A stretch of DNA of 64,000 nucleotides from Eledone cirrhosa (taxonomy: Eukaryota), in NCBI GenBank assembly GCA_964016885.1, contig OZ024743.1:375410001-375474000 (forward strand), given 5' to 3'. Position 1 is the stretch's first letter; each line of letters begins with the position of its first letter. A program made the translations under genes and the position numbers. Positions 1-61,738 of the stretch are shown here, one piece after another. The notes beneath the pieces were generated by a model. The model made no database searches. It worked only from the letters and a program-made list of their open reading frames with translations, and had not been told where the DNA came from.

Positions 1-3000
1 ACTCTATAAAATGTCCACACCACCACCAAGTCACATTAACTCTATAAAATGTCTACACCACCACCAAGACACATTAACTCTATAAAATGTCTACACCACC
101 ACCAAGACACATTTACTCTATAAATTGTCTACACCACCACCAAGACACATTCACACTATAAAATGTCTACACCACCACCAAGACACATTAACTCTATAAA
201 ATGTCCACACCACCACCAAGACACATTAACTCTATAAAATGTTTACACCACAACCAAGACACATTAACTCTATAAAATGTCCACACCACCGCCAAGACAC
301 ATTAACTCTATAAAATGTCTACACCACCACCAAGACACATTAACTCTATAAAATGTCCACACCACCACCAAGACACATTCACTCTATAAAATATCTACAC
401 CACAACCAAGACACATTAACTCTATAAAATGTCTACACCACCACCAAGACACATTCACTCTATAAAATGTCTACACCACCACCAAGACACATTCACTCTA
501 TAAAATATCTACACCACAACCAAGACACATTAACTCTATAAAATGTCTACACCACCACCAAGACACATTAACTCTATAAAATGTCTACACCACCACCAAG
601 ACACATTCACTCTATAAAATGTTTACACCACCACCAAGACACATTAACTCTATAAATTGTCTACACCACCACCAAGACACATTCACACTATAAAATGTCT
701 ACACCACCACCAAGACACATTCACACTATAAAACGTCTACACCACCACCAAGACACATTAACTCTATAAAATGTTTACACCACCAAGTCACATTAACTCT
801 ATAAAATGTCTACACCACCACCAAGACACATTAACTCTATAAAATGTCTACACCACCACCAAGACACATTTCCTCTATAAATTGTCTACACCACCACCAA
901 GACACATTCACACTATAAAATGTCTACACCACCACCAAGACACGTTCACTCTATAAAATGTCTACACCACCACCAAGACACATTCACTTTACAAAATGTC
1001 CATACCACCACCAAGACACATTAACTCTATAAAATGTCCACAGCACCACCAAGACACATTAACTCTATAAAATGTTTACACCACCACCAAGTCACATTAA
1101 CTCTATAAACTGTCTAGACCACCACCAAGACACATTAACTCTATAAAATGTCTACACCACCACCAAGACACATTCACATTATAAAATGTCTACACCACCA
1201 CCAAGACACGTTCACTCTATAAAATGTCTACACCACCACCAAGACACACTCACTTTACAAAATGTCCATACCACCACCAAGACACATTAACTCTATAAAA
1301 TGTCTACACCACCACCAAGACACATTAACTCTATAAAATGTTTACACCACCACCAAGACACATTAACTCTCTAAAATGTTTACACCACCACCAAGACACA
1401 TTAACTCTATAAAATGTTTACACCACCACCAAGTCACATTAACTCTATAAACTGGGTAGACCACCACCAAGACACATTAACTCTATAAAATGTCTACACC
1501 ACCACCAAGACACATTCACACTATAAAATGTCTACACCACCACCAAGACACATTCACACTATAAAATGTCTAGACCACCACCAAGACACATTAACTCTAT
1601 AAAATGTCCACACCACAACCAAGACACATTCACTCTATAAAATATCTACACCACCACCAAGACACATTCACACTATAAAATGTCTAGACCACCACCAAGA
1701 CACATTTACTCCATAAAATGTCCACACCACAACCAAGACACATTCACTCTATAAAATGTCTACACCACCACCAAGACACATTCACTCTATAAAATGTCCA
1801 CACCACAACCAGTACACATTCACTCTATAAAATGTCTAGACCACCACCAAGACACATTATCTCTATAAAATGTCCACACCACAACCAAGACACATTCACT
1901 CTATAAAATGTCTACACCACCACCAAGAAACATTCACACTATAAAATGTCTACACCACAACCAAGACACATTCACTCTATAAAATGTCTACACCACCACC
2001 AAGACACATTCACTCTACAAAATATCCACACCACCACCAAGACACATTAACTCTATAAAATGTCCACACCACCACCAAGACACATTAACTCTATAAAATG
2101 TTTACAGGACCACCAAGACACATTAACTCTATAAAATGTTTACACCACCACCAAGACACATTAACTCTATAAAATGTTTACACCACCACCAAGTCACATT
2201 AACTCTATAAAATGTTTACACCACCACCAAGACACATTAACTCTATAAAATGTCCACACCACAACCAAGACACATTCACTCTATAAAATATCTACACCAC
2301 CACCAAGACACATTCACACTATAAAATGTCTAGACCACCACCAAGACACATGTACTCCATAAAATGTCCACACCACAACCAAGACACATTCACTCTATAA
2401 AATGTCTACACCACCACCAAGACACATTCACTCTATAAAATGTCCACACCACAACCAGTACACATTCACTCTATAAAATGTCTAGACCACCACCAAGACA
2501 CATTATCTCTATAAAATGTCCACACCACAACCAAGACACATTCACTCTATAAAATGTCTACACCACCACCAAGACACATTAACTCTATAAATTGTCTACA
2601 CCACCACCAAGACACATTCACACTATAAAATGTCTACACCACCACCAAGACACATTAACTCTATAAATTGTCTACACCACCACCAAGACACATTCACACT
2701 ATAAAACGTCTACACCACCACCAAGACACATTAACTCTATAAAATGTTTACACCACCACCAAGTCACATTAACTCTATAAAATGTCTACACCACCACCAA
2801 GACACATTAACTCTATAAAATGTCTACACCACCACCAAGACACATTTCCTCTATAAATTGTCTACACCACCACCAAGACACATTCACACTATAAAATGTC
2901 TACACCACCACCAAGACACATTAACTCTATAAATTGTCTACACCACCACCAAGACACATTCACACTATAAAACGTCTACACCACCACCAAGACACATTAA

Positions 3001-6000
3001 CTCTATAAAATGTTTACACCACCACCAAGTCACATTAACTCTATAAAATGTCTACACCACCACCAAGACACATTAACTCTATAAAATGTCCACACCACCA
3101 CCAAGACACATTAACTATATAAAATGTCTACACCACCACCAAGACACATTAAGTCTATAAAATGTTTACACCACCACCAAGTCACATTAACTCTATAAAA
3201 TGTCTACACCACAACCAAGACACATTAACTCTATAAAATGTCTACACCACCACCAAGACACATTCACTCTATAAAATGTCCACACCACAACCAAGACACA
3301 TTAACTCTATAAAATGTCCACACCACCACCAAGACACATTAACTCTATAAAATGTCTACACCACCACCAAGACACATTAACTCTATAAAATGTTTACACC
3401 ACCACCAAGTCACATTAACTCTATAAAATGTCTACACCACAACCAAGACACATTAACTCTATAAAATGTCTACACCACCACCAAGACACATTAACTCTAT
3501 AAAATGTCCACACCACCACCAAGACACATTAACTTTATAAAATGTCTACACCACCACCAAGACACATTAACTCTATAAAATGTCTACACCACCATCAAGA
3601 CACATTAACTCTATAAAATGTTTACACCACCACCAAGTCACATTAACTCTATAAAATGTCTACACCACCACCAAGACACTTTAACTCTATAAAATGTTTA
3701 CACCACCACCAAGTCACATTAACTCTATAAAATGTCTACACCACCACCCAGACACATTAACTCTATAAAATGTCTACACCACCACCAAGACACATTAACT
3801 CTATAAAATGTCCACACCACCACCAAGACACATTAACTCTATAAAATGTCTACACCACCACCAAGACACATTAACTCTATAAAATGTCTACACCACCACC
3901 AACACACATTAACTCCATAAAATGTCTACACCACCACCAAGACACATTAACTCTATAAAATGTCCACACCACAACCAAGACACATTAACTCTATAAAATG
4001 TTTACACCACCACCAAGTCACATTAACTCTATAAAATGTCTACACCACCACCAAGTCACATTAACTCTATAAAATGTCTACACCACCACCAAGACACATT
4101 CACACTATAAAATGTCTAGACCACCACCAAGACACATTATCTCTATAAAATGTCCACACCACAACCAAGACACATTCACTCTATAAAATGTCTACACCAC
4201 CACCAAGAAACATTCACACTATAAAATGTCTACACCACAACCAAGACACATTCACTCTATAAAATGTCTACACCACCACCAAGACACATTCACTCTACAA
4301 AATATCCACACCACCACCAATACACATTAACTCTATAAAATGTCCACACCACCACCAAGACACATTAACTCTATAAAATGTTTACAGGACCACCAAGACA
4401 CATTAACTCTATAAAATGTTTACACCACCACCAAGACACATTAACTCTATAAAATGTTTACACCACCACCAAGTCACATTAACTCTATAAAATGTTTACA
4501 CCACCACCAAGACACATTAACTCTATAAAATGTCCACACCACAACCAAGACACATTCACTCTATAAAATATCTACACCACCACCAAGACACATTCACACT
4601 ATAAAATGTCTAGACCACCACCAAGACACATGTACTCCATAAAATGTCCACACCACAACCAAGACACATTCACTCTATAAAATGTCTACACCACCACCAA
4701 GACACATTCACTCTATAAAATGTCCACACCACAACCAGTACACATTCACTCTATAAAATGTCTAGACCACCACCAAGACACATTATCTCTATAAAATGTC
4801 CACACCACAACCAAGACACATTCACTCTATAAAATGTCTACACCACCACCAAGACACATTAACTCTATAAATTGTCTACACCACCACCAAGACACATTCA
4901 CACTATAAAATGTCTACACCACCACCAAGACACATTAACTCTATAAATTGTCTACACCACCACCAAGACACATTCACACTATAAAACGTCTACACCACCA
5001 CCAAGACACATTAACTCTATAAAATGTTTACACCACCACCAAGTCACATTAACTCTATAAAATGTCTACACCACCACCAAGACACATTAACTCTATAAAA
5101 TGTCTACACCACCACCAAGACACATTTCCTCTATAAATTGTCTACACCACCACCAAGACACATTCACACTATAAAATGTCTACACCACCACCAAGACACA
5201 TTAACTCTATAAATTGTCTACACCACCACCAAGACACATTCACACTATAAAACGTCTACACCACCACCAAGACACATTAACTCTATAAAATGTTTACACC
5301 ACCACCAAGTCACATTAACTCTATAAAATGTCTACACCACCACCAAGACACATTAACTCTATAAAATGTCCACACCACCACCAAGACACATTAACTATAT
5401 AAAATGTCTACACCACCACCAAGACACATTAAGTCTATAAAATGTTTACACCACCACCAAGTCACATTAACTCTATAAAATGTCTACACCACAACCAAGA
5501 CACATTAACTCTATAAAATGTCTACACCACCACCAAGACACATTCACTCTATAAAATGTCCACACCACAACCAAGACACATTAACTCTATAAAATGTCCA
5601 CACCACCACCAAGACACATTAACTCTATAAAATGTCTACACCACCACCAAGACACATTAACTCTATAAAATGTTTACACCACCACCAAGTCACATTAACT
5701 CTATAAAATGTCTACACCACAACCAAGACACATTAACTCTATAAAATGTCTACACCACCACCAAGACACATTAACTCTATAAAATGTCCACACCACCACC
5801 AAGACACATTAACTTTATAAAATGTCTACACCACCACCAAGACACATTAACTCTATAAAATGTCTACACCACCATCAAGACACATTAACTCTATAAAATG
5901 TTTACACCACCACCAAGTCACATTAACTCTATAAAATGTCTACACCACCACCAAGACACTTTAACTCTATAAAATGTTTACACCACCACCAAGTCACATT

Positions 6001-9000
6001 AACTCTATAAAATGTCTACACCACCACCCAGACACATTAACTCTATAAAATGTCTACACCACCACCAAGACACATTAACTCTATAAAATGTCCACACCAC
6101 CACCAAGACACATTAACTCTATAAAATGTCTACACCACCACCAAGACACATTAACTCTATAAAATGTCTACACCACCACCAACACACATTAACTCCATAA
6201 AATGTCTACACCACCACCAAGACACATTAACTCTATAAAATGTCCACACCACAACCAAGACACATTAACTCTATAAAATGTTTACACCACCACCAAGTCA
6301 CATTAACTCTATAAAATGTCTACACCACCACCAAGTCACATTAACTCTATAAAATGTCTACACCACCACCAAGACACATTCACACTATAAAATGTCTACA
6401 CCACCACCAAGACACATTAACTCTATAAAATGTTTACACCACCACCAAGACACATTAACTCTATAAAATGTCCACACCACCACCAAGACACATTAACTCT
6501 ATAAAATGTTTACACCACCACCAAGACACATTACCTCTATAAAATGTCCACACCACCACCAAGACACATTAACTCTATAAAATGTTTACACCACCACCAA
6601 GACACATTAACTCTATAAAATGTCCACACCACCACCAAGACACATTAACTCTATAAAATGTCCACACCACCACCAAATCACATTAACTCTATAAAATGTC
6701 TACACCACCACCAAGACACATTCACTATATAAAATGTCCACACCACCACCAAGACACATTAACTCTATAAAATGTCTACACCACAACCAAGACACATTAA
6801 CTCTATAAAATGTCCACACCACCACCAAGTCACATTAACTCTATAAAATGTCTACACCACCACCAAGACACATTAACTCTATAAAATGTCTACACCACCA
6901 CCAAGACACATTTACTCTATAAATTGTCTACACCACCACCAAGACACATTCACACTATAAAATGTCTACACCACCACCAAGACACATTAACTCTATAAAA
7001 TGTCCACACCACCACCAAGACACATTAACTCTATAAAATGTTTACACCACAACCAAGACACATTAACTCTATAAAATGTCCACACCACCACCAAGACACA
7101 TTAACTCTATAAAATGTCTACACCACCACCAAGACACATTAACTCTATAAAATGTCCACACCACCACCAAGACACATTAACTCTATAAAATGTCTACACC
7201 ACCACCAAGACACATTAACTCTATAAAATGTCCACACCACCACCAAGACACATTAACTCTATAAAATGTCCACACCACCACCAAGACACATTCACTCTAT
7301 AAAATATCTACACCACAACCAAGACACATTAACTCTATAAAATGTCTACACCACCACCAAGACACATTCACTCTATAAAATGTCTACACCACCACCAAGA
7401 CACATTCACTCTATAAAATATCTACACCACAACCAAGACACATTAACTCTATAAAATGTCTACACCACCACCAAGACACATTAACTCTATAAAATGTCTA
7501 CACCACCACCAAGACACATTCACTCTATAAAATGTTTACACCACCACCAAGACACATTAACTCTATAAATTGTCTACACCACCACCAAGACACATTCACA
7601 CTATAAAATGTCTACACCACCACCAAGACACATTAACTCTATAAATTGTCTACACCACCACCAAGACACATTCACACTATAAAACGTCTACACCACCACC
7701 AAGACACATTAACTCTATAAAATGTTTACACCACCACCAAGTCACATTAACTCTATAAAATGTCTACACCACCACCAAGACACATTAACTCTATAAAATG
7801 TCTACACCACCACCAAGACACATTTCCTCTATAAATTGTCTACACCACCACCAAGACACATTCACACTATAAAATGTCTACACCACCACCAAGACACGTT
7901 CACTCTATAAAATGTCTACACCGCCACCAAGACACATTCACTTTACAAAATGTCCATACCACCACCAAGACACATTAACTCTATAAAATGTCCACACCAC
8001 CACCAAGACACATTAACTCTATAAAATGTTTACACCACCACCAAGTCACATTAACTCTATAAACTGTCTAGACCACCACCAAGACACATTAACTCTATAA
8101 AATGTCTACACCACCACCAAGACACATTCACATTATAAAATGTCTACACCACCAAGACACGTTCACTCTATAAAATGTCTACACCACCACCAAGACACAT
8201 TCACTTTACAAAATGTCCATACCACCACCAAGACACATTAACTCTATAAAATGTCTACACCACCACCAAGACACATTAACTCTATAAAATGTTTACACCA
8301 CCACCAAGACACATTAACTCTCTAAAATGTTTACACCACCACCAAGACACATTAACTCTATAAAATGTTTACACCACCACCAAGTCACATTAACTCTATA
8401 AACTGTGTAGACCACCACCAAGACACATTAACTCTATAAAATGTCTACACCACCACCAAGACACATTCACACTATAAAATGTCTACACCACCACCAAGAC
8501 ACATTCACACTATAAAATGTCTAGACCACCACCAAGACACATTAACTCTATAAAATGTCCACACCACAACCAAGACACATTCACTCTATAAAATATCTAC
8601 ACCACCACCAAGACACATTCACACTATAAAATGTCTAGACCACCACCAAGACACATTTACTCCATAAAATGTCCACACCACAACCAAGACACATTCACTC
8701 TATAAAATGTCTACACCACCACCAAGACACATTCACTCTATAAAATGTCCACACCACAACCAGTACACATTCACTCTATAAAATGTCTACACCACCACCA
8801 AGACACATTCACTCTACAAAATATCCACACCACCACCAAGACACATTAACTCTATAAAATGTCCACACCACCACCAAGACACATTAACTCTATAAAATGT
8901 TTACACGACCACCAAGACACATTAACTCTATAAAATGTTTACACCACCACCAAGACACATTAACTCTATAAAATGTTTACACCACCACCAAGTCACATTA

Positions 9001-12000
9001 ACTCTATAAAATGTTTACACCACCACCAAGACACATTAACTCTATAAAATGTCCACACCACAACCAAGACACATTCACTCTATAAAATATCTACACCACC
9101 ACCAAGACACATTCACACTATAAAATGTCTAGACCACCACCAAGACACATGTACTCCATAAAATGTCCACACCACAACCAAGACACATTCACTCTATAAA
9201 ATGTCCACACCACAACCAGTACACATTCACTCTATAAAATGTCTAGACCACCACCAAGACACATTATCTCTATAAAATGTCCACACCACAACCAAGACAC
9301 ATTCACTCTATAAAATGTCTACACCACCACCAAGACACATTAACTCTATAAATTGTCTACACCACCACCAAGACACATTCACACTATAAAATGTCTACAC
9401 CACCACCAAGACACATTAACTCTATAAATTGTCTACACCACCACCAAGACACATTCACACTATAAAACGTCTACACCACCACCAAGACACATTAACTCTA
9501 TAAAATGTTTACACCACCACCAAGTCACATTAACTCTATAAAATGTCTACACCACCACCAAGACACATTAACTCTATAAAATGTCTACACCACCACCAAG
9601 ACAGATTTCCTCTATAAATTGTCTACACCACCACCAAGACACATTCACACTATAAAATGTCTACACCACCACCAAGACACGTTCACTCTATAAAATGTCT
9701 ACACCACCACCAAGACACATTCACTTTACAAAATGTCCATACCACCACCAAGACACATTAACTCTATAAAATGTCCACAGCACCACCAAGACACATTAAC
9801 TCTATAAAATGTTTACACCACCACCAAGTCACATTAACTCTATAAACTGTCTAGACCACCACCAAGACACATTAACTCTATAAAATGTCTACATCACCAC
9901 CAAGACACATTCACACTATAAAATGTCTACACCACCACCAAGACACGTTCACTCTATAAAATGTCTACACCACCACCAAGACACATTCACTTTACAAAAT
10001 GTCCATACCACCACCAAGACACATTAACTCTCTAAAATGTCTACACCACCACCAAGACACATTAACTCTATAAAATGTTTACACCACCACCAAGACACAT
10101 TAACTCTCTAAAATGTTTACACCACCACCAAGACACATTAACTCTCTAAAATGTTTACACCACCACCAAGACACATTAACTCTATAAAATGTCCACACCA
10201 CCACCAAGACACATTAACTCTATAAAATGTCCACACCACCACCAAGACACATTAACTCTATAAAATGTCTACACCACAACCAAGACACCTTAACTCTATA
10301 AAATGTCCACACCACCACCAAGTCACATTAACTCTATAAAATGTCTACACCACCACCAAGACACATTAACTCTATAAAATGTTTACACCACCACCAAGTC
10401 ACATTAACTCTATAAACTGTGTAGACCACCACCAAGACACATTAACTCTATAAAATGTCTACACCACCACCAAGACACATTCACACTATAAAATGTCTAC
10501 ACCACCACCAAGACACATTCACACTATAAAATGTCTAGACCACCACCAAGACACATTAACTCTATAAAATGTCCACACCACAACCAAGACACATTCACTC
10601 TATAAAATATCTACACCACCACCAAGACACATTCACACTATAAAATGTCTAGACCACCACCAAGACACATTTACTCCATAAAATGTCCACACCACAACCA
10701 AGACACATTCACTCTATAAAATGTCTACACCACCACCAAGACACATTCACTCTATAAAATGTCCACACCACAACCAGTACACATTCACTCTATAAAATGT
10801 CTAGACCACCACCAAGACACATTATCTCTATAAAATGTCCACACCACAACCAAGACACATTCACTCTATAAAATGTCTACACCACCACCAAGAAACATTC
10901 ACACTATAAAATGTCTACACCACAACCAAGACACATTCACTCTATAAAATGTCTACACCACCACCAAGACACATTCACTCTACAAAATATCCACACCACC
11001 ACCAAGACACATTAACTCTATAAAATGTCCACACCACCACCAAGACACATTAACTCTATAAAATGTTTACACGACCACCAAGACACATTAACTCTATAAA
11101 ATGTTTACACCACCACCAAGACACATTAACTCTATAAAATGTTTACACCACCACCAAGACACATTAACTCTATAAAATGTTTACACCACCACCAAGACAC
11201 ATTAACTCTATAAAATGTTTACATCACCACCAAGTCACATTAACTCTATAAAATGTCTACACCACAACCAAGACACATTAACTCTATAAAATGTCTACAC
11301 CACAACCAAGACACCTTAACTCTATAAAATGTCCACACCACCACCAAGTCACATTAACTCTATAAAATGTCTACACCACAACCAAGACACATTAACTCTA
11401 TAAAATGTCCACACCACCACCAAGACACATTAACTCTATAAAATGTCTACACCACAACCAAGACACCTTAACTCTATAAAATGTCCACACCACCACCAAG
11501 TCACATTAACTCTATAAAATGTCTACACCACAACCAAGACACATTAACTCTATAAAATGTCCACACCACCACCAAGACACATTAACTCTATAAAATGTCT
11601 ACACCACCACCAAGACACATTAACTCTATAAAATGTCTACACCACCACCAAGACACATTAACTCTATAAAATGTCCACACCACCACCAAGACACATTAAC
11701 TCTATAACATCTTTACACCACCACCAAGACACATTAACTCTATAAAATGTCCACACCACCACCAAGACACATTAACTCTATAAAATGTCTACACCACCAC
11801 CAAGACACATTAACTCTATAAAATGTCCACACCACCACCAAGACACATTAACTCTATAAAATGTTTACACCACCCCCAAGACACATTAACTCTATAAAAT
11901 GTCCACACCACCACCAAGACACATTAACTCTATAAAATGTTTACACCACCACCAAGACACATTAACTCTATAAAATGTCCACACCACCACCAAGACACAT

Positions 12001-13135
12001 TAACTCTATAAAATGTCTACACCACCACCAAGACACATTAACTCTATAAAATTTCTACACCACCACCAAGACACATTAACTCTATAAAATGTCCACACCA
12101 CCACCAAGACACATTAACTCTATAAAATGTCTACACCACCACCAAGACACATTAACTCTATAAAATGTCCACACCACCACCAAGACACATTAACTCTATA
12201 AAATGTCCATACCACCACCAAGACACATTAACTCTATAAAATGTCCACACCACCACCAAGACACATTAACTCTATAAAATGTTTACACCACCTCCAAGAC
12301 ACATTAACTCTATAAAATGTCTACACCACTACCAAGACACATTAACTCTATAAAATGTCTACACCACCACCAAGACACATTCACTCTATAAAATGTCTAC
12401 ACCACCACCAAGACACATTAACTCTATAAAATGTCTACACCACCACCAAGACACATTAACTCTATAAAATGTCTACACCACAACCAAGACACATTCACTC
12501 TATAAAATGTCTACACCACAACCAAGACACATTAACTCTTTAAAATGTCTACACCACCACCAAGACACATTAACTCTATAAAATGTCTACACCACAACCA
12601 AGACTCATTAACTCTATAAAATGTCTCCACCACCACCAAGACACATTCACTCTATAAAATGTCTACACCACAACCAAGACACATTAACTCTATAAAATGT
12701 CTACACCACAACCAAGACACATTCACTCTATAAAATGTCTACACCACCACCAAGACACATTAACTCTATAAAATGTCTACCCCACCACCAAGACACATTA
12801 ACTCTATAACATGTCTACACCACAACCAAGACACATTAACTCTATAAAATGTCTACACCACCACCAAGACACATTAACTCTATAAAATGTCTACACCACC
12901 ACCAAGACACATTCACTCTATAAAATGTCTACACCACCACCAAGACACATTAACTCTATAAAATGTCTACACCACCACCAAGACACATTAACTCTATAAA
13001 ATGTCTACACCACCACCAAGACATATTCACTCTATAAAATGTCTACACCACAACCAAGACACATTAACTCTATAAAATGTCTACACCACCACCAAGACAC
13101 ATTCACACTATAAAATGTTTACACCACCACTACCA
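1..13135. repeat. 38-bp tandem satellite array (~345 monomers, open at the left edge), consensus ACTCTATAAAATGTCTACACCACCACCAAGACACATTA
   Basis: Continuous head-to-tail 38-nt units with few variant positions. Two 35-bp monomers lacking one CAC (~770-790, ~8140-8155). Degenerate monomers at ~13115-13240. Confidence 0.98.
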
Positions 13136-16085: not shown

Positions 16086-16290
16086 ATAGGAACGATTAGG
16101 ACCCCGACGGCTGAGCTCAAACCGTTTCGACGGCTAATTCTGGACTAAATTTAGTCCAGAATTAGCCGTCGAAACGGCTTGAGCTCACCCGTCGGGGTCC
16201 TAATCGTTCCTATTACCCACTCTACTACCCTAAGTATTGAGTACTTTGGTGCGTTATGGTCCACCTGGTTCCTTACCACATTTCCTTCGT

Positions 16291-16292
<2 letters not shown>
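16086..16292 (+). mobile_element. 128-bp palindrome plus ~80-bp tail; PLE pseudo-LTR-type fragment inserted in (TA)n
   Basis: 16086-16213 is palindromic with 2 mismatches. A second copy with the same tail lies at 32341-32543. Confidence 0.7.
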
Positions 16293-16351
<59 letters not shown>

Positions 16352-16355
<4 letters not shown>

Positions 16356-17467
16356 ACATCCACCAACTCCTCTCCTTCGTTGTGGATAATGCATTATTCA
16401 ATTTCCTCGGCCACACGTACAAACAGATCTCTGGACTACCTATGGGCTCTAGTCTGTCCGGCATACTTGCGATCTCGGACATGGACCACCTGGAACGCAA
16501 GGCACTCAACACCTGCCAACCCAACGCCGTCGCCTTCTACTCCAGATACGTTGATGACATACTGATTCTCACTTCTTCCCGGGAGATGGCGAATGAAATT
16601 CACCAAATCTTTAACGACACTGACCATCACGTCGATTTCACCATCGAACACCCTGAAGAAGACGGGTCACTCGCCCTCCTCGACTTCCGTATCAACATCT
16701 CGGAAGAAGGAGACATAAACACCACCTTCTACCGCAAGGCAGCGTGCAAGGACTTATTTGTGCATTACAACTCAGCCCTCCCCAACAACGCTAAGAGAGG
16801 CTATGTCCTAAATGAACTTACACGGATCACTAATAGATGCAGCGACCCGATGGGTGGTCTCACCCATACCACGCAATTCCGTAATCTACTCAAGTCTAAT
16901 GGATATCCCAAGCGACTGATTAACGGAATTAGAGACCCCAGACCCAATAGACAGACACCCACTAGAAACTTAGATAAAAACAAGTGCCTCTTTAAAATCC
17001 CTCACCTGAGTGAATATACCACGAACGCCATCCGCAGGGCCATACGGAGGGAGGGACTTGATATACATTTGGCCCACACAGGACCTTCGCTCCGAAGATG
17101 CCTCTCCACCAAACCCGACGAGTCAGATGGGATGTGCTCCCTCAGCAACTGCCCGATACGGGGGGCAGATTGCCTATGCACCTATGTCGTATATAAGATT
17201 CAATGCGATAAATGTAACAAGTTTTACATAGGTAGCACCATCCGACCCCTACATGTTCGTATCAAGGAACATGTCAACACCAACGCATCTTCCTTCCGTA
17301 AACACATCCTTAAATGCGGAAACCCACAGGGCAGACCCTTGGTCACAGTCCTAGCGACTGAACGCAGCATCGGATCCTTAAGGATAAAGGAAGCACTTGT
17401 TATTAAGAACCTCAGACCCCCACTTAACAACCGGGCTGAGAGAAATGAGCTGACATGGCTAATCTAA
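16352..17467 (+). pseudogene. 5'-truncated Penelope-like element ORF (RT C-terminal half + GIY-YIG endonuclease)
   Basis: QISGLPMGSSLS, RYVDD, LALLDFRI, YRK motifs; VVYKIQCDKCNKFYIGST...RIKEH...KEALVI..P.LN. Starts abruptly at a (TA)n tract, so the track's first 32 aa are spurious. Confidence 0.92.
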
Positions 17468-18218
<751 letters not shown>

Positions 18219-20046: not shown

Positions 20047-20082
<36 letters not shown>

Positions 20083-20087
<5 letters not shown>

Positions 20088-20692
20088 TATGTATACGTAC
20101 ATACATATATGTATACAGACGTACAGTAGTATGTATATATATACATACATGTACACAAATATATATGTACGTATGGATTCACCGAACATTTATTATAATG
20201 TTCGGTTTGTTTGTAAACAAACATCCCGAATTAAGCCGTACAGTGTTTACCAACCATCGTTGCCCTTTTGTTCAACACTAACAAAGGAACGATGTACTAG
20301 TTTCAAGCTTATTAGCTATCGTCAGCACCGTATACCTTCCTGCCAGATGATTGAACGTCTGAAAGTATATACTTACCTTATGCATATTAACGGCTGAGTA
20401 GCCTAATTTGCATATCGAGTGAGTTAATCGGCCGGGCGCACCGAAAACGATAAATGGAAAAAATGAAACGAAATTTCATTTCTCACTCTTAGTACGGCTG
20501 TTACTTAAATATAAGTATGTACACGTACATACATATATGTACACAGACGTACAGTAGTATGTATATATATATACATACATGCACACATATATATATGTAC
20601 GTATGGATTCACCGTACATTTATTATAATGCATTTATTATAATGCTTAATTCGGGATGTTTGTTTACAAACAAACCGAGCATTATAATAAAT
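20083..20692 (-). mobile_element. Retrozyme-like non-coding tandem unit (428-bp period, ~1.3 copies, plus a terminal inverted segment)
   Basis: 20083-20200 recurs at 20511-20630; 20644-20692 is the reverse complement of ~20186-20236. Contains an HHR and is homologous to the 466-bp unit at 56.9 kb. Confidence 0.7.
20289..20331 (-). ncRNA. Minimal type-I hammerhead ribozyme motif
   Basis: ACGGUG-CUGACGA-u-AGCU-aaua-AGCU-u-GAAA-CUAG-UA-CAUCGU: intact core, 6-bp stem I (one G-U), palindromic stem III, GUA cleavage triplet. Confidence 0.8.
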
Positions 20693-20697
20693 GTATA

Positions 20698-44989: not shown

Positions 44990-45486
44990 TGTAGCGACGT
45001 GGTTAGTCCGTCTAGTCACTACTTCTGATCAGATCCGAGAATAGCCCTTAGAAGGACTGTTATCGCATACGGTCTGATCAGATCTGAAGATAGCCCTTAA
45101 AAGGACTGTTGTCGCATATAGCCCTTAAAAGAACTGTTGAGGATGGACAGACGAAAGCACAAGTTGAAAGGACGAAGCAAGGCGAGAAGTAAATTCGATC
45201 AGCTATTTATTTTCACATGAAGCGACGATACGAGGTACAAGGCGTGTGAGTGACAAAGCGTGGCAGAGGCGAGGAACAACGATGCGTTAGCTGACTCTGC
45301 CAAAAGTCGACTAGCGAAGTGTTGGGAACCACTCTATTTATACAGAAACAATCGTTTGATGTTTAGCCGATTTGTAAGCGTTTATTCTGGTAGGTTTTAA
45401 GGGTTCTTTTGTTTCACGTTGAAGTAGCTAGCTAACAGGTAGATGGCGCTGTATATTTCACAGATGTTATTTCCGGTGGCTGTACA
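44990..45486 (-). repeat. 3' LTR (497 bp)
   Basis: Matches the 5' LTR except for a 49-bp extra internal repeat unit and 2 substitutions seen by eye. Confidence 0.95.
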
Positions 45487-46420
45487 TTAGCACCCTGCCA
45501 GTTCTTTTGTACAACAAAAGAGCGAAATATCGTATAGTAATGGGCCAGTGGTGCATTTGTCATGACAATAGCCCCAGGAGTGTCCAGCACGTTGTGAAAT
45601 TTTGTGATCATCGAGTACAGGACAGAGTCGATGTAGAGATGATATGGCAAGATGTGTGTGTCAGGAAGAGAAAAAAAGAAATAAACTATAAAATGACTTT
45701 GACCAGATTTATGCAGGCGTGATGAATGAGCCTGTTGCAATTTCGGTTGAGCTGCCTGTGAATTGCGTGACAAAAAGTCTAAGTGGGCAGTGAAGATAAC
45801 CGTAATGTGTGAACTGAATGGCCGTAAGCATGCTGCCTAAAAGTAACAGCTTGCTCCACAGCATATGACTTGGGCGAATGCATGTGGTAAAAAAAATAGC
45901 GAGGCATTCTCGAGCTATTGAGTGAATGTGTACGTGAAAAAAGAAGGCCAGTGTTTTGAGGATGCGATTTGTGAAATGCGTGATCAAAGAGAAAACATTT
46001 TGTAGTGTAAGAGTTAGAGGGACACAAATATCTATTGCTCAGTGTATGAACTAAAAGGTGAAACAAACGTGGTTTTGTAGTGTGCATGAAAAACAGGATA
46101 TGTACACGCCTTGTATGTATATAAAAGTTATGGCAATTACACAATCAATGTTACAGAACAAGAAAAATAAAAAAAATTGCAAAACAAGAGAGAGAAGAAA
46201 AAAAAATGTTATACACAATGATATACACAATGTTTGTTCTTAAATAGTGTTTGTAATAAATAACGTTCATTATAAATAATGTTCTTCGTGACATGAGCAC
46301 ATGGTCACTAAAAGTTGCAATGTTCAAGCAGAAAGTTCATTGTATTTGAAACTGGAAATAGTAAACACAAGAAAAATGGAAATGTTTTGCACGAAGAATG
46401 ATTAAGAAACTCACTTGAGG

Positions 46421-49400
46421 TTAACGGTAATTCACATATTGTGCCAAATTTGCGGACCAATGGACGCGTCGTCCGCTTCTCGTGACTGGAGATGAAACAG
46501 GTGGCTCGCTGGGACAGCAATCTGTTGGAGTTTCTGGTGTAGAGACTGTAACTGTATCCATGGTGGCTTTTTTTAATCTGTCCACGCTGACAGAATTCTG
46601 TTTACCATATAGATCGAGAATAAAATATTTCGGATATTTTTTTAGAACACGATAAGGGCCAGAATATGGAGGTCGAAGATGAGCTGAGATGGTGTCGTTT
46701 CGAACGAAAACGTGTGTCCAAACATCAATGTCTGAAGGTACATGTGTGGCCGTGTTCTGTTGACGGGTGTTTGCAGGAGCAAGGTGAGACATATATTGTC
46801 GAAGACGGTGTACGTATGATCCTGGGTCTGGAACATCCTGAGGAGAGATGGGAGCAACCATCTGACCAGGTAGAACCAGGGTGGTGCCGTACACTAATTC
46901 TGCAGGTGTGTGTCCGAATTCCTCCTTAACGGTGGATCGAACCAGTGGGTCTTGTCTGGATATGCTTTTATTGCAGCTTTCAATTGACGAAGGAATCTTT
47001 CCACGAGACCATTAGCTTGCGGGTGATAAGCTGTCGTGCGGATGTGTTTACATCCTAACAGGCGAGTCAGTTCCCTGAGAGGTGGGAGTCAAACTGGCGT
47101 CCTCTGTCCGTTGTTATCTTCGCTGGGGCGCCATAACGTGATATCCAGTGTAAAACCAAAGTTTTAGCGACTGTTTCCGCTGAGGTATCATTTATGGGAA
47201 AAGCCTCAGGCCAACGAGAAAATCGATCAATGCAGGTGAGCAAGTGTGTGTAGTTCTGTGATGGTGGTAGAGGTCCGACGATGTCGATATGCACATGATG
47301 AAAACGTGCATCAGGTTGCGCGAATGTGCCGAGTGGAGTTTTGATGTGTCTGTGGACTTTGGCTTTCTGGCAGGCAATGCAGCTCCTGGACCAGTCGCGC
47401 ACGTCCTTGTTAATGTTTGTCCACACAAAACGAGCAGAGATGAGTTTCTGTGTAGCCCGGATTCCCGGGTGAGACAAGCAGTGTAAAGCAGAAAAAACTT
47501 GTCGACGATGCATCTGTAGTACGTACGGTCGTTCATGACCGGTAGAAATGTCGCACCAAATTTGTCCCGGAGAAGAAGGAATGGGAACTTGCTGAAACTT
47601 GAGGGATGGCGAATCTCGGAGTTTGATAAACTCTTCGTCAGTCTCTTGGTCAGCTGCGATCTGTTGAAGGTCGATGCCTGAATGCACATGTATTGCGTTC
47701 AGCTGGATTCGGGACAGGGCGTCGGCTGCTACGTTGTCTGATCCCTTGATATGCCGAATATCAGTTGAATATTGGGAGACAAAATCCAGGTGTCGGAGTT
47801 CTTTCGGTGAATGTCGATCAGGTTTGGTACGGAACGCATAAATTAATGGTTTATGGTCCGTGTAGATCACCAAATCTGATCCTTCGAGCATGTGCCGAAA
47901 ATGCTTAACCGAAAGATAGGTTGCCAAGAGTTCGCGGCCAAAGGTACTGTATTTCGTTTCTGCCGGTTGCAACCGCTTAGAAAAGAAGGATAAGGGTTGC
48001 CACACGCCGTCGACATGTTGTTGTAGAACGCCTCCAACCCCCGTGTCTGATGCGTCCACTAGCACTGAAAGAGGAGCGCCAGACCTGGGGAAAACGAGCA
48101 TGGAAGCGTTTGCCAACATTTCCTTCAGGCGGTTAAAAGATTATTCTTCCTCGTTTAGAGTGATCTCTTCGTTTTTGCGAGTCCGGTTACGAAGAAGGTC
48201 CGTGAGGAGTCTGGCTGCGTCGGAAAAATGCGGGATGAACCGCCTATAAAAATTCACCAGACCGAGGAATTCACGCAGTTTCCGAAGTGATGTAGGTGCA
48301 GGAAAACTGCGGATAGCTTCTACTTTCTCGGGAAGTGGGCGAATGCCGTCTTTATCGATGATGTGCCCGAGAAAGGACAGTGAAAGGACGCTGAGAAGGC
48401 ACTTGCTGGGTTGATGATGATACCGTACTCAGTCAAACGTCGGAAAAGGAGATCTAAGTGCTTCTCGTGTTCATTCTCGGAAGCACTTGCTACCCGTACG
48501 TCGTCAATATACGCGTATATGAAGGGTAGATCGCGTAACACGGTGTCGATAAACCGCTGAAAAGTTTGTGCAGCGTTGCGCAGACCGAACGGCATTCGCA
48601 GGAATTCGAATAAACCGAACGGTGTTGTGATTGCCGTTTTCGGAATATCTGCAGGCTCCATAGGTATCTGGTTATATGCACGCACCAAATCTACCTTGGA
48701 AAAGATACGTGCGCCTTGCAGAGAGGCAGAAAAATCGTGCAGGTGAGATACAGGGTAATTATCGGGCACTGTAGAATTGTTAAGTGCACGATAATCCCCA
48801 CATGGTCGCCAATCATTCTCGGCTTTTTGGGAACAAGGTGTAGGGGTGCAGACCAGTTGCTGGAGGAAGGGCGAATGATTCCGAGGTCCAGCATGTGTTG
48901 GAACTCATGCTTGGCGATTCTCAATCGGTCTGGAGGCAGTCTCCTTGGTCGGGCAGCTGTGGGTGGTCCCTTTGTCTCGATGTGGTGCGTGACACTATGC
49001 TTAATAGGACCATCCTTAAATACCGGGCGAGTGATGTCTGGATATTTCTGGAGAATGCCGTTGTACCGTGAAGGCTCTGACGGGTAAATTACAGGGCTCA
49101 CTGTGGATTGCGTGGTAAATATACCTCTCACAGTGAGGTTTGTGGTGGTGTCGATAAGCCTCCGGTTCTTCATATCCACCAGAAGGTTGAAGTGGTGGAG
49201 AAAATCGGCTCCTAGGATCGGTGTTGGCAGGTCTGCCACGACGAACACCCATTGAAAACGCCGCCTCAGGCCTAAATTGAGGATCAGAGACTTCTCCCCG
49301 AAAGTCGGAATTGACGATTGGTTCACTGCCTGCAGAAAGGACGGGGTTGGGTGTCTTTTGCCCGAGATTAGTGAAACAGGAATAACACTAACCTGGGCTC

Positions 49401-49779
49401 CTGTATCCACGAGGTAACGGATGCCTGTCGCCTGGTCGTTAATAAAAAAAAATAGACGACTTTTCTTTTCAGTACCAGGGGTGAACGTCGTCGCTAGGCC
49501 CTGGGTGGCATTCCGGAAAGAGCACGGGGCTTTGCACTTAGATGCCTGTGCGCCGAAATTTGTGTGATACCAGCAGAGGTTGCCAGGCACACGATTTTGA
49601 CTGGGACTACTGGATCTTCGACTGTGAAAAGGCCTGGATCGACTGTTGCTGCGTCGCCGGTGTGTTTGAAAGGTCAAGTTCTCTACTTGATTCGAAAGGG
49701 CTTTAATTTGACCAGCCCGCTCTCTGATCATAGCCCGCAGCTCTGAAATCTCGGCCTCTGTCGTTTGTGACATGTCCAT
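46421..49779 (-). pseudogene. Gypsy gag(C-terminal)-pol remnant split by frameshifts
   Basis: CWYHTNFG..ASKC..PC knuckle; protease LVDTGA; [10 protein letters not shown] and YIDD; RNase [20 protein letters not shown]; integrase H...HPG...CxxC, DIVGPLP, TDRGRQF, PYSGPY. Confidence 0.95.
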
Positions 49780-49804
49780 GTTAATATTTTCTTAGGTGCT
49801 GTCT

Positions 49805-53089: not shown

Positions 53090-53570
53090 AATATATATAT
53101 ATACATATATATATTTGGGTAAGGTCATATTTGTGTAATAATATTGCCAGAATTAATAACAGAACACACTCACTGTTTGGTTGGTTTTCGCTTCTGTGTC
53201 TTTTATATCGGTTAATTTAATTTATTCGGTCCTCAATGTTACCATTGACTGACCAACGGTCAAACATACAGATATAATATAGACACAAACACATATATAT
53301 AGTCTAACAAAGTTCTTTTGTTGCACGTCTGCAACATCGTCAGTGGTGCTATTATGTTTCCTCCTGTTGTATTGTATGCCTACGCCATCTTTATTTAGTC
53401 TATTTTTTTTTTTGTCTTCTCTCCGCATGCGTTTGCGTGTGTGTATAGTGTTTGATGTGTGTTCGTGTTTGGGTGACTGTGTATTGGTTATTGTATTATA
53501 TCTTAGTTTACTAGTGTGTGTTTATATGTGTTTGTTGTTATTGTGCTTGTGTATGTATTTATTTATTTAT

Positions 53571-54785
53571 TTATACTGCTCTTAGGTCAGTATTGTTTGT
53601 TTGGGTGTTGTTATTCCATTCATTTTTTCTGTTTAGCCTTGGCCTTCTAAGTTCTATTTCGCTGGCCTCTCTGATTTGCCTATCTGCTGGGTCATTTCTA
53701 TGTTTAGATATAATTTCTATGTTGTCTATGTTAACGTCGTGTTGTTGTCTGGCATGTTCGTATAGTACTGAACCGTTTTTTCGTCCTTTTAGTTCCCCCC
53801 AGTGTTGGTCTATCCTTTCACCTATGCTACGAGCTGTCTCACCTATGTATGTTGTTGTCATGTTTCTGCAAGTACCCTCTATGTTTCTAGTTTTACAGTT
53901 TATCCGGGGGTTTACTTTACATATAATACATTTCCTATTAGTACAATGGGTTTTGTTAAAAGGGTAGGTTTTTCTGATCAGGGATTTTATGGTGGTTCCT
54001 GGCATTTCTACCACCTTAATCTTTAAGCGGATCTTTCTCGTTGCCTTTCTACACTGGTTCGCTAATTTCCCTCCAGGTGTAGCGTCCACAAACATGACAC
54101 TCTGGTATCTCTGGTTGTCGTATCATGAGATGGCTTTCCCTATCTTATGTCTAGTCCTATCTAAGCTATTCCATAATTTGCTCCTGTATAATAGGCAAAT
54201 TCCTTTCATGTCCAGTTCTATGAGGGTCTTTTACTTCTTCGTGGCTCCTTCGTATACTCTGATTCTGTCTCTTTCATTGTAGCCAGAGAACTGCATGCGG
54301 ATGATGAAGTGTTGGATGTGTCTTTCCATTTCTGTTGGGTCGCACATGCGGGACACGTTCTTCATCACTCGTACCAAGTCTGCGATCAGAATATTAAACT
54401 TAGCACTACTGGACATTGCTGAGTTTTTTAGTATCAGGTATTTGGAGGCCATGGGTTTAGCGTAGTGTGAGTGGAGAATTTGGGCTCTCTCGTCTATAGT
54501 GTTAATCCAGAGTTCCGTGTCTAATACAGGTAGTCTATTGTTAGGGTGTTTGGAAGGGTAGTCGATAGTTACAGTTATACTCTGGTGTATGGAATTAGCT
54601 ATCTGCTGGATGCTTTCCATTGTGCTACGTTCTAAATCAAACTTGTTAGTACTCACTTGTGGGGATGTCCTTATTAGTATATTGATGTCGTCTACGTAAC
54701 GAGAGTACATGATGAGGTCTATGGAGCTCTCATCAAGGAGATCTTTGAGTCTCCTTTCCCACCTTTCAATAACAAAAACACCCAA
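53571..54785 (-). pseudogene. PLE RT C-terminal part + GIY-YIG (frameshifted)
   Basis: YSRYVDD, LPVLDTEL, HYAKP; TYIGETARSIGERIDQH, RQIREASEI..P.LN. Confidence 0.9.
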
Positions 54786-55244
54786 ACAAACAATACTGAC
54801 CTAAGAGAAGTATAAATAAATAAATAAATACATACAGAAGCACAATAACAACAAACACATATAAACACACACTAGTAAACTAAGATAGAATACAATAACC
54901 AATACACAGTCACCCAAACACTATACACACGCAAACGCATGCGCAGAGAAGACAAAATAAATAAATAAATAAACAGACTAAATAAAGATGGTGTAGGCAT
55001 ACAATACAACAGGAGGAAACATAATAGTACCACTGACAATGTTGCAGATGTGCAACGAAAGAACTTTGTTAGACTATATATATGTGTTTGTGTCTATATT
55101 ATATCTGTATGTTTGACTGTTGGTCAGTCAATGGTAACATTGAGGACCGACTAAATTAAATTAACCGATATAAAAGACACAGAAGCGAAAACCAACCAAA
55201 CAGTGAGTGTGTTCTGTTATTAATTCTAGCAATATTACACAAAT

Positions 55245-55658
55245 ATGACCCTCCCCAAGTATAACAATATTTGTTTCGACACACGATTTCATATCAAAAA
55301 CCTCGCAAAACTAATTCATCGCCGTTATGGCATTAGCTTGTGCCAAGCTGAAAGGTTATTGAAAGACCCTGTTTTCTGTTATATAAAAACTACAATAACA
55401 ACAGAACAAATCCGCTTCTTAAAACACTGTGTTTCCTTCAAAATATACACAACAAACATATCAAAACAAGTAAATAATTTATTATTAAACAAAACACAAG
55501 CTGAACGATTAAAATACACAATAACAGTTAATATGAAAAGAACATACACAAATGTTAACGAACTTTACAGACAGAAACTCATTAACGGTAAGGAAGTTCG
55601 AAATCTCACCACACCAAACGAGAGGGATGAACTCATGAGCAATATTACACAAATATGA
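55245..55658 (+). pseudogene. Probable N-terminal 137 aa of the same PLE ORF
   Basis: Follows the inverted pseudo-LTR directly. The MTLPKY start is also present at the end of the left pseudo-LTR (53110-53128, -). IRFLKHC resembles the PLE N-terminal FLxxC motif. The start is re-duplicated at ~55638-55725. Confidence 0.6.
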
Positions 55659-55727
55659 CCCTCCCCAAGTATAACAATATTTGTTTCGACACACGATTTC
55701 ATATCAAAAACCTCGCAAAACTAATAC

Positions 55728-56524: not shown

Positions 56525-57227
56525 ATTTTTTATGTTTGTACATACAGTTGATCTCCTACTCAACGCAAGAGACATATAGATACATATATATAAATTGATG
56601 TACAGTGTGGAGCGACATATATTATACTATACTATATTTGTAGAGTAACTCAAATTAAGACAAAATAAAAATACATGCGACAGATAACACAGATAATGCA
56701 GGAGAATAGTTCAATGATCAGATCTAGTAGATACTGTATGCGTTAGTCATACATGGAGCATGCAAATGTGTCTCATTTATATAAGAATATTGTGTGGCAA
56801 TGTATTACATGTAATACAAGCACATTAAGCGGGTAAGCAAGAGTATTATGGTGGTTGCAGTGGGGGGGGAGCATATATATTCTTATATATATATGTACAT
56901 ATATATATACATATATATATGTACATATATATATGAAAACAAATAGCGAAACGAAATTAAATTTCGTTTCGTTTGTAACTCACTTTTGTATGACTGACGC
57001 TTAAACAATTAAGTTAGAAATGTACATCCACATATGTATACTGAAATACTAGTATGCATATGAATACACACACGTGTACATATGTAGATGTACCGAGTTT
57101 TTCACTGGACACTTTACTGTGAGTGTCCAGCTATTCTGTATGTAAACACACAGACAAACCGGTTTTTAGAGTCATACTGGTTTTCGAGGAAACACCTTTC
57201 CTCTATTCTCCAGAAAGCCAGACAAGG

Positions 57228-57272
57228 AATATTGGACTAGTTTCGATGTTGTTACATCTCATCAGCAATATT
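57228..57272 (-). ncRNA. Minimal type-I hammerhead ribozyme (canonical core)
   Basis: AAUAUUG-CUGAUGA-GAUGU-aaca-ACAUC-GAAA-CUAG-UC-CAAUAUU. Confidence 0.9.
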
Positions 57273-57693
57273 TACCTATCTTCCGGCCTTTCTAGAGAAT
57301 CGTAAAAGCACATATCGTTATATGCTTTTTCTATGAAAATTAGTAGTGGGCAGACTAATTTGCATAGAGCGTGAGTACGTACCGGTTCAGCGGAGACGAT
57401 AAAAACAGATAACGAAACGAAATTAAATTTTGTTTCGTTTGTAACTCACTTTTGTATGACTGACGCTTAAACAATTAAGTTAAAAATGTACATCCACATA
57501 TGTATACTGAAATACTAGTATGCATATGAATACACACACGTGTACATATGTAGATGTACCGAGTTTTTCACTGCACACTTTACTGTGAGTGTCCAGCTAT
57601 TCTGTATGTAAACACACAGACAAACCGGTTTTTAGAGTCATACTGGTTTTCGAGGAAACACCTTTCCTCTATTCTCCAGAAAGCCAGACAAGG

Positions 57694-57738
57694 AATATTG
57701 GACTAGTTTCGATGTTGTTACATCTCATCAGCAATATT
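57694..57738 (-). ncRNA. Minimal type-I hammerhead ribozyme, second tandem copy
   Basis: Identical to 57228-57272, 466 bp away. Confidence 0.9.
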
Positions 57739-58013
57739 TACCTATCTTCCGGCCTTTCTAGAGAATCGTAAAAGCACATATCGTTATATGCTTTTTCTAT
57801 GAAAATTAGTAGTGGGCAGACTAATTTGCATAGAGCGTGAGTACGTACCGGTTCAGCGGAGACGATAAAAACAAATAACGAAACGAAATTAAATTTCGTT
57901 TCGTTTGTAACTCACTTTTGTATGACTGACGCTTAAACAATTAAGTTAGAAATGTAAAAAGCATATAACGATATGTGCTTTTACGATTCTCTAGAAAGGC
58001 CGGAAGATAGGTA

Positions 58014-58058
58014 AATATTGCTGATGAGATGTAACAACATCGAAACTAGTCCAATATT
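58014..58058 (+). ncRNA. Minimal type-I hammerhead ribozyme, inverted copy
   Basis: aatattg ctgatga gatgt aaca acatc gaaa ctag tc caatatt, read directly on the + strand. Confidence 0.9.
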
Positions 58059-58292
58059 CCTTGTCTGGCTTTCTGGAGAATAGAGGAAAGGTGTTTCCTC
58101 GAAAACCAGTATGACTCTAAAAACCGGTTTGTCTGTGTGTTTACATACAGAATAGCTGGACACTCACAGTAAAGTGTCCAGTGAAAAACTCGGTACATCT
58201 ACATATGTACACGTGTGTGTATTCATATGCATACTAGTATTTCAGTATACATATGTGGATGTACATTTCTAACTTAATTGTTTATATATATA

Positions 58293-58434: not shown

Positions 58435-59156
58435 AATATTAATAAATGGAAACTATCTTTATAAAACCATATTTATTTTATTTTATATATTTCAAGGGTA
58501 CCAACACTTTTGGTACGCTCTCATTAGATAAAATATACAAGTTGTTTTATAGTAATTATTGGGTCTATTCTAATTAGAATAGACCCAATAATTAGTACTA
58601 TCTCTCACTTTTTAAAATTGATATTCTACCACTTCAACACATTTATAATTCTCATATTATATTATAGATACTACCAAAATATATAATTATATAATTAAAT
58701 AAATAAATATAATTATTTCACTCGCTTTACACCATCACTAATACGATCCATACAATTATATATTAATAATAATAGTCTATTTCTAACTATAATATACTTT
58801 TTCTTATATTCTTTCCTTAAATTTTATTACACCCTAATATTTATATTAACGTCTCTCTCTTCTTCCCTTAAAAAATTAAAAAATAATACTAATAATTATT
58901 TAACTTTACCTAGCGTCTAAATATAACGATCTTTTTCAACTTTACGTTATCCTCATTAACATATTCATCCTCAGATTTGAATTTCGTTCACTGTTCAAAC
59001 AGAACTTAAAACGATAAGTTCTTGTTTTGGGATATGTCACTATCTATAAAACAACTTTTGTATTTTATCTGATGAGTGCGTACCAAAAATATACCTTGAA
59101 ATATATATAATAAAATAAATATGGTTTTATAAAGATAGTTTCCATTTATTAATATT
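58435..59156. mobile_element. AT-rich PLE pseudo-LTR remnant with ~115-bp inverted arms (58435-58552, 59044-59156) and an HHR at 59061-59117 (+)
   Basis: UAUUUUAU-CUGAUGA-...-GAAA-UAUAUA-UA-AUAAAAUA; stem II is better preserved in the left arm. Confidence 0.65.
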
Positions 59157-61150: not shown

Positions 61151-61557
61151 TAATGCTTAGGGTATTACTCCTACTATGACTACGCCTACGACCATGTCGA
61201 CTACCACCACTAACAACAACAACAACAACAATAATAATAATAAAAGTGTTGTTGATGGTGATGATTACTGAAGATTTTTTATAAAAACCCTAGAAAATGC
61301 TATTTTCATCATTTCTAAAAATAGTAAAACAATTGATGGTTTGGATAGGGTCAAATAGAAGTCGTTAGACATGCTCAACCAACCGTTACGCCTAAACCAA
61401 TCAGCTTTAGTAATCTAGTGAAACTACACACCAATTTGTCGAAATAGAGTTTGCAAAACTTAGCATCCTGTAGCCCCTTTTTACTGTATATAAGGCACAG
61501 ATTTTACCCATCTCATTACAGTTGAAAATTGTAAACTTGACTGTTACCACTGAATAG

Positions 61558-61702: not shown

Positions 61703-61738
<36 letters not shown>

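Follow-up and report, generated by a model that had tools for sequence, protein, structure and literature searches.

A family of non-coding hammerhead retrozymes with Penelope-type insertion footprints in the Eledone cirrhosa genome

What kind of mobile element is a short, tandemly repeated unit that carries a hammerhead ribozyme, is the ribozyme kept by selection, and how does the unit spread? These questions are raised by a locus at positions 20083–20697 of a 64,000-nt stretch of the Eledone cirrhosa genome (GenBank assembly GCA_964016885.1, contig OZ024743.1, forward-strand positions 375,410,001–375,474,000; hereafter, the window). A preliminary description had regarded this locus as a diverged sister of a 466-bp unit found in the same window, and had proposed that compensatory changes in a common hammerhead reflect selection for ribozyme function. 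Our analysis indicates that the element at 20083 (A), its sister (B) and a third lineage (C) are almost certainly elements of the retrozyme type, and that the family belongs to the known retrozyme class rather than forming a new class of element. As an overall reading, we favour A, B and C being non-coding, non-LTR retrozymes likely spread via a Penelope-like reverse transcriptase (RT)/endonuclease from an RNA that is probably circular.

The layout of element A corresponds in most respects to that described previously. A (TA)n microsatellite, the insertion target, was found on the left (20052–20085), adjoining the short (S) 3′ end of the element. The 428-bp period is that of a full unit of subfamily A1 (20083–20510), the RNA sense of which is the minus strand and the left end of which is the short 3′ end. 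This unit is followed by a 5′-truncated second unit in partial tandem (20511–20630, minus strand; 93.6% identity over 125 nt) and by the terminal inverted segment, which we located at 20644–20697 (plus strand; 98% identity over 51 nt). The inverted arm stands head-to-head with the main arm, corresponds to unit positions ∼59–109 and has no 3′ end of its own; the inversion junction is marked by a 14-bp duplication (20617–20645). The description of more than one tandem unit is correct in that a partial second unit is present, but the copy comprises only 1.28 units with a single hammerhead and an inverted arm lacking its own 3′ end, and thus represents a truncated copy. An optional tail of ∼60 nt lies between the short and long 3′ ends (20450–20510, minus strand) and contains a hairpin (20465–20482, minus strand); the long 3′ end itself (20450) is internal in this copy. 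A 24-bp remnant of an A-type tail hairpin is also present inside (TA)n at 62306–62329 (minus strand). The element consists purely of tandem or inverted units. The longest ATG frame of A1 (102 aa) is not kept in the sister units, five of which have longest frames of 30–66 aa, and no reading frame for RT plus GIY-YIG, as would be expected of an autonomous element, was found in the retrozyme units.

The hammerhead lies on the minus strand exactly where it had been read (20289–20331). It is of type I, and one is present in each repeat unit of the family. In the RNA sense, the 5′ strand of stem I (20326–20331) is followed by the first core segment (20319–20325), by stem II with a U·U at its base (20305–20318), by GAAA, a palindromic stem III and the cleavage triplet (20295–20304) and by the 3′ strand of stem I (20289–20294), the cut being predicted between 20295 and 20294. 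The canonical type I core (C3 U4 G5 A6 N7 G8 A9, G12 A13 A14, A15.1–U16.1 and H17) is present, and its variation is restricted to positions at which the hammerhead rule permits it, namely N7 and H17 (A, C or U). On both sides of the hammerhead, stem I is extended (20278–20346, minus strand) by a 3 × 1 bulge, a 3-bp helix and a distal 5-bp helix, which covary between A and B. The sole pair that is broken and not compensated is 10.1·11.1, which is G–C in B only, U·U family-wide in A (A1 and A2, while subfamilies A3 and A5 have C·A or C·C) and also U·U in most C. U10.1·U11.1 is a natural and the best tolerated mispair (PMC3088659), and an axolotl retrozyme with the same U·U mismatch cleaves, axolotl HHR_Amex2 having U·U at the base of helix II (PMC7229834).

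The best Rfam match of the motif is RF02275 (Hammerhead_HH9), which shares its type I arrangement, including the bulge in stem I. The scores, 19.8 bits for A and 38.9 bits for B, are both below the gathering score of 52; the motif differs from RF02275 in its 2-bp stem III and, in A, in being without G10.1–C11.1. No match at the gathering level was obtained by Rfam in the window, and the A motif was unmatched in an Rfam scan of 671 nt. Matches to microRNAs and other families in the AT-rich part were below the cut-off and were rejected as composition artefacts. When folded alone, the hammerhead region of A is no better than its shuffles (z ∼ −1), and its lowest-energy fold mispairs the core.

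The sister element, B1, occupies 56936–58284 with 2.2 copies of its 466-bp unit on the minus strand and a 329-bp inverted arm; its hammerhead cores are at 57265 (minus), 57731 (minus) and 58021 (plus), and its long and short ends are on the left and right, respectively. The proposed collinearity of A and B was borne out by a whole-unit alignment with 63% identity over ∼430 columns, and their homology extends outside the ribozyme: both non-ribozyme halves outscore 1,000 of 1,000 dinucleotide shuffles (local scores of 79 versus 20.5 ± 3.0 and 99 versus 23.8 ± 3.9; 0/1,000 shuffles each). All of the 11 core positions are identical in A and B, as had been claimed, whereas 12 of the 28 paired sites differ. 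Two details of the earlier reading require correction. The stem II difference does involve compensatory pairs, but the U10.1·U11.1 mismatch at the base of stem II in A had been overlooked. Stem I likewise differs with compensation; in register, however, it consists of 6 bp, the 3 × 1 bulge and the distal helix in both elements, and not of 6 bp in one and 7 bp in the other.

A search of the 3.0-Gb genome for exact matches to the core pattern with a 14-nt stem II identified 40,322 A/B hammerhead motifs (2 in the control), among which 9,498 are of B type, ∼30,800 are, by subtraction, mostly of A type and 1,590 have A or C as the first base of stem II. With stem III specified as G/C, the search yielded a further 19,053 matches (124 in the control), and most of the first 100 listed belong to the 310-bp lineage C. 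Other stem II spacings gave 120 (8–13 nt) and 213 (15–22 nt) matches, mostly indel-damaged copies or unrelated motifs. Unit lengths are 422–502 bp in A, 466–469 bp in B and 310–311 bp in C, and the divergence of subfamilies from their consensus ranges from 0.4% in the near-identical B1 to ∼4% in the decayed A3. Lineage C forms young arrays in both orientations, has a stem III palindrome of G and C with U·U or A–U at the base of stem II, and shows two 3′ ends ∼26 nt apart (loci L325–L344 and L058:2853–3321). Its non-ribozyme part is weakly similar to that of A1 (score 43 versus 26 ± 4; 0/200 shuffles), and comparison of the same part with B1 gave no significant similarity (32/200 shuffles).

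The three lineages allowed the covariation of the stems to be evaluated against the conserved core. In 13 real copies chosen as subfamily representatives of the three lineages, 95.5% of the cells pair (74.1 ± 2.0 when shuffled), 11 of the 17 pairs change on both sides, and partners slid out of register pair in ≤54%. Among the 11 A/B representatives, pairing is found in 96.5% of 230 cells, and 8 of the 21 pairs change on both sides, two of them in the distal helix that is absent from the preliminary description. RNAalifold recovers the same stems unaided. Covariation held up and became more extensive as more copies were included. In a placement simulation at the lineage level, so few broken pairs are expected with P = 6 × 10⁻⁴ (B to A), 2 × 10⁻⁴ (B to C) and 2 × 10⁻⁵ (A to C). 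The number of pairs changed on both sides, taken alone, is within the range of the shuffles (94/500), and the rows are related rather than independent, most changes being traceable to two or three lineage splits. Because C was found by a pattern without stem constraint, its stems provide an independent test of covariation; the core of C and of the motif-found loci is invariant by construction, being part of the search pattern. In each lineage, the hexamer of stem III is complementary to itself, with the inner pair changed from U–A to G–C, and this exchange of one palindrome for another fits the dimer cleavage described in PMC4209133 and PMC3088659. These findings support the conclusion that the hammerhead fold of A, B and C is maintained by compensatory changes, and with it the earlier reading in terms of selection for the ribozyme.

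Structural conservation is not confined to the hammerhead. The circular monomer folds with z values of −6.8 (A1), −8.8 (A2), −12.1 (B1) and −5.1 (C), and values of −5.6 and −8.2 are still obtained without the AT-rich hairpin; in these predicted folds, the order of helices is identical in A, B and C. Of the 39 pairs beyond the ribozyme, 5 show changes in both partners; 3 of these belong to P2, an 8-bp long-range helix formed between 20234–20241 and 20492–20499 (minus strand), the latter in the tail. As the structure was derived from the same alignment, this covariation leans towards itself. If the RNA is circular or tandem, the two strands of P2 would lie on either side of the short 3′ end. A conserved octamer-like block (20403–20413, minus strand, and 57356–57366) would form the 5′ side of a hairpin predicted in both A and B. 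Between these two lineages it has changed less than the strand with which it is predicted to pair, which hints at a role that depends on its sequence; it was not seen in lineage C. The idea that it is an internal promoter is unsupported, the block being one strand of a predicted hairpin and unseen in C.

The inserted copies themselves decay throughout. In 40 A copies found by DNA search, changes were counted at 12 of 520 core positions (2.3%) and at 323 of 10,605 positions in the rest (3.0%). The core therefore decays about as fast as elsewhere, which indicates that selection acts on the replicating source lineages and not on the inserted copies.

How the family spreads can be approached through its insertion ends. 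We mapped 410 arms (352 distinct 5′ ends and 342 distinct 3′ ends) in 247 loci, many of them overlapping, which are a non-random sample, taken as the top BLAST hits or as the motif matches listed first. Of the 3′ ends, 225 of 289 in A and 51 of 53 in B fall at one of two fixed sites, located ∼217 and 273 nt downstream of the cut in A1 and 228–233 and 302 nt downstream in B1; most of them are followed by (TA)n. In 185 of the 225 canonical A ends, at least four TA follow within 30 nt. For the long end at 20450, loose ends in TA were seen in 52 and 49 contigs of two runs (X1 and X2), all from one sample and of unrecorded kind. Because the insertion ends lie within (TA)n, any target duplication is hidden. 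In the predicted folds of A, B and C, the 3′ strand of P2 closely follows the short end, and the long end falls within a U-rich strand that precedes a GC hairpin.

The 5′ ends are distributed all round the unit, 270 of the 352 adjoining an inverted retrozyme arm. Both ends are canonical in 60 of the 97 head-to-head insertions, and each of these (60/60) combines one long and one short end; the other 37 were left out because at least one end is non-canonical (eroded or interrupted). Both lineage C insertions with two visible ends show the same combination. The two arms share a six-site haplotype in 28 of 33 loci (5.7 when shuffled), a concordance that might also arise if subfamilies had been active in different periods. 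The insertions combine partial tandems with a 5′-truncated inverted arm, a tail that is optional and confined to one end, and a microsatellite target; this is the Penelope-type signature, and a Penelope-like mobiliser is very probable.

Among arms identified without a motif requirement, there are 78 passes through the cut site and 1 stop, versus 1.33 stops expected. An apparent pile-up of 5′ ends at the cut site, considered as a sign of in vivo cleavage, was a BLAST query-edge artefact; after realignment, none is at position 1. Since 5′ ends are not piled up at the cut site, the templates should be circular or uncut, and their absence there fits an uncut multimer as well as a circle.

The copies occur both as short insertions dispersed over many chromosomes and as arrays of up to 30 units, the arms of which run from unit to unit with no coding frame. 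Young arrays are near-homogeneous, with array-private variants common to both arms (L032, L230 and L307). The 30-unit B array (L238 + L239, G000:C1 5.738–5.752 Mb) ends in an inverted arm, and the same variants recur in its non-adjacent units. A single pass round a monomeric circle would not yield this pattern, and a simple rolling-circle origin is unsupported; the shared variants suggest block duplication, template switching or a multimeric template.

A Penelope-like element, PLE-X, resides in the window at 53111–55725, with its short end at ∼53111 and an inverted, tailed arm reaching the long end near 55725. It has an RT and, at the C-terminus, an endonuclease motif with a CX4CxxC linker; these were identified by visual inspection, Pfam giving only a weak match to RT. 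A hammerhead-like motif is present near 53300–53345. A first look across the genome gave 3,664 candidates for this family, and 9 of 10 of its inversions combine a long and a short end. PLE-X is a candidate for the mobiliser family and is not part of the retrozyme. GIY-YIG matches in the genome fall into several families (at least 150 of 10,595 candidates scored; about ten families read). The 3′ regions of 11 sampled Penelope-like copies show no homology to A or B (best z of 3.6 in 44 tests), and no partner can thus be named by sequence. Of the non-inverted 5′ flanks (77 in all), none was observed to continue collinearly into a Penelope frame common to them; where flanks cross-matched, the matches were to the retrozyme itself, to a LINE-like piece and to a short interspersed repeat.

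Direct 5′-to-5′ junctions between retrozymes and Penelope-like elements are few and ambiguous. At L091, a PLE-X tandem adjoins A, and the remainder of the retrozyme was not found within 10 kb; at L092 (2255–2280), A is joined to a 13-nt PLE-X long end before (TA)41; L244 (2500–3900), a complex palindromic locus, has two junctions to a PLE-X relative; and at L072, B is joined to another family. L010 was rejected as a co-insertion of retrozyme and PLE-X, because it is a nested insertion, the retrozyme continuing past the 3′ end of PLE-X. PLE-X sits there in the AT-rich hairpin of an older A retrozyme (L010/L320), and the unit itself is thus a target.

Several other repeats were observed in the window. 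A 5′-truncated Penelope-like element with GIY-YIG (60110–61750) carries at 61562 a minimal hammerhead, in which stem II likewise starts with U·U and stem III is a palindrome, and another with RT, GIY-YIG and a (TA)n end (16241–18105) has only a degenerate hammerhead-like stretch. A hammerhead-like motif with an 8-bp AT-rich stem I is located at 59060–59110 and was also seen in L183. Further repeats are the pol region of an LTR retrotransposon in several frames (46400–49800, minus strand; protease, RNase H and integrase), a strongly strand-skewed 38-bp satellite with ∼346 copies (1–13130) and a 49-bp unit in 1.9 tandem copies (45024–45118). Elsewhere in the genome, 5′ ends of A and B retrozymes meet the same position of a LINE-like element (L235:2466–2930 and L283:2518–2860), and at L292:1–459 the LINE-like element breaks off at that same position.

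From these data, the following course can be proposed. Tandem copies would be transcribed, two hammerheads would pair via the palindromic stem III and excise monomers, and a host ligase would close the circle; the monomer would then adopt the conserved multi-helix fold suggested by prediction and covariation. (TA)n DNA would be opened and both strands extended from the two fixed internal start sites, ∼56–74 nt apart and one per strand, as the insertion footprints indicate, presumably by the Penelope-like enzyme. Copying would cross the ribozyme junction unstopped and fall off at random, and the two cDNA 5′ ends would be joined head-to-head, again in agreement with the footprints. The inserted copies afterwards decay, catalytic core included. 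We lean towards cleavage and the circle really being used. A tentative extension is that the family is a shape-only parasite, in which the folded circular RNA presents the two start sites with no sequence in common with the resident Penelope ends, and one enzyme dimer on one RNA would prime one target strand per site. This extension, although less likely than the course outlined above, would explain the long and short ends in every complete inversion.

The strongest competitor, to which we assign a low probability, is that a Penelope enzyme copies an uncut read-through multimer, that the fold is kept as a bound shape or cleaves too weakly, and that long arrays grow further by DNA-level duplication. 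It agrees with the absence of 5′ ends at the cut site, the freedom of the 10.1·11.1 pair in A and C, the recurrence of haplotypes in the 30-unit array and covariation that is not limited to the ribozyme. Cleavage also appears dispensable in vitro, since ribozyme mutants left insertion by the Penelope element tested unaffected (PMC11167929), and one of nine frog retrozyme dimers cleaved, the other eight being inactive (10.64898/2026.07.22.740005). An uncut template, however, does not readily account for 11 core positions being unchanged between A and B in the face of 12 differing paired sites out of 28, for the confinement of variation to the free positions N7 and H17, for the exchange of the stem III palindrome for another palindrome, or for near-homogeneous young arrays with private variants across both arms.

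It is considerably less probable that the unit is the pLTR of an unsampled autonomous Penelope-like element and that the copies are its 5′-truncated end fragments. The ends and inversions are of Penelope type, and 150 of 10,595 endonuclease candidates were scored, with about ten families read, which leaves room for such an element; yet up to 30 units run arm-to-arm with no coding frame, no common collinear Penelope frame was seen in the 77 non-inverted 5′ flanks, no homology was found to the 11 sampled 3′ regions, and the hammerhead has a canonical 6-bp stem I with a bulge and not the minimal form (PMC4209133). Least probable of all is another route, by a LINE enzyme or by DNA circles and satellite-type amplification, for which the common LINE-like position at L235 and L283 and the internal duplication history of long arrays might speak, but which conflicts with 3′ ends that are internal, fixed and free of a poly(A) tail, with the strict rule of one long and one short end that PLE-X also shows, and with short insertions dispersed on many chromosomes.

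The retrozyme reading is in keeping with described metazoan systems. Among the closest are the non-LTR retrozymes of coral, mussel and axolotl (PMC7229834), above all axolotl HHR_Amex2. Their units, too, are short, tandemly arranged and non-coding, each with one type I hammerhead whose helix III is weak and palindromic; a self-paired circle is predicted for them, and copies number in the tens of thousands. B (466 bp) and some A2 units are slightly longer than the range given there (150–450 bp), and cleavage and circles have been demonstrated for those retrozymes, whereas they are predicted for A, B and C. Penelope mobilisers are only proposed in the same study, in the available part of which neither end mapping nor a rule for inversions nor structural covariation between lineages is reported. 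The same model, with Penelope machinery used and both types of element co-occurring in one genome, has been put forward for vertebrate retrozymes (10.64898/2026.07.22.740005). Its basis is co-occurrence and pLTR homology (24 of 57 frog families matched known elements, and 21 of 22 of those matched elements are Penelope-like), whereas insertion footprints provide the link of A, B and C to Penelope; that text nowhere uses the word ‘tail’, and ‘inverted’ occurs in a reference only.

Among Penelope-like elements, the endonuclease-positive members with a C-terminal GIY-YIG and a Neptune/Nematis-type linker (PMC8557442) and Poseidon PAc (PMC11167929) provide the closest parallels. They share with A, B and C the partial tandems, the (TA)n targets, the inverted 5′-truncated arm, the optional tail at one end and two internal start sites downstream of the hammerhead with both strands extended. 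In contrast to these elements, A, B and C are without a coding frame, and the tail is ∼56–74 nt in A and B and ∼26 nt in C, compared with 30–40 nt. PAc in vitro shows no strand difference in start site (PMC11167929), whereas the two arms of A, B and C always use different sites. A tail at one end only has already been noted for Penelope elements. In a literature search that covered main texts and a minority of subscription journals, no description of the family turned up among octopus, cephalopod and mollusc hammerheads or retrozymes, and no long-plus-short rule was found for retrozymes.

Arguments about the enzyme that moves animal retrozymes, and about whether ribozyme and circle are in fact used, still draw on sequence similarity and co-occurrence, and the making of tandem, inverted and tailed Penelope insertions is described as open in PMC8557442 and only partly answered in PMC11167929. 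The family described here offers countable footprints that bear on these questions: two start sites matched in three folds, the pairing of a long with a short end in 60 of 60 inversions and read-through of the cut site. It also provides short natural templates, together with their compensatory variants, for a direct test. If the shape-only reading is true, A, B and C would represent a natural template of 310–470 nt for the choice of start sites by Penelope elements.
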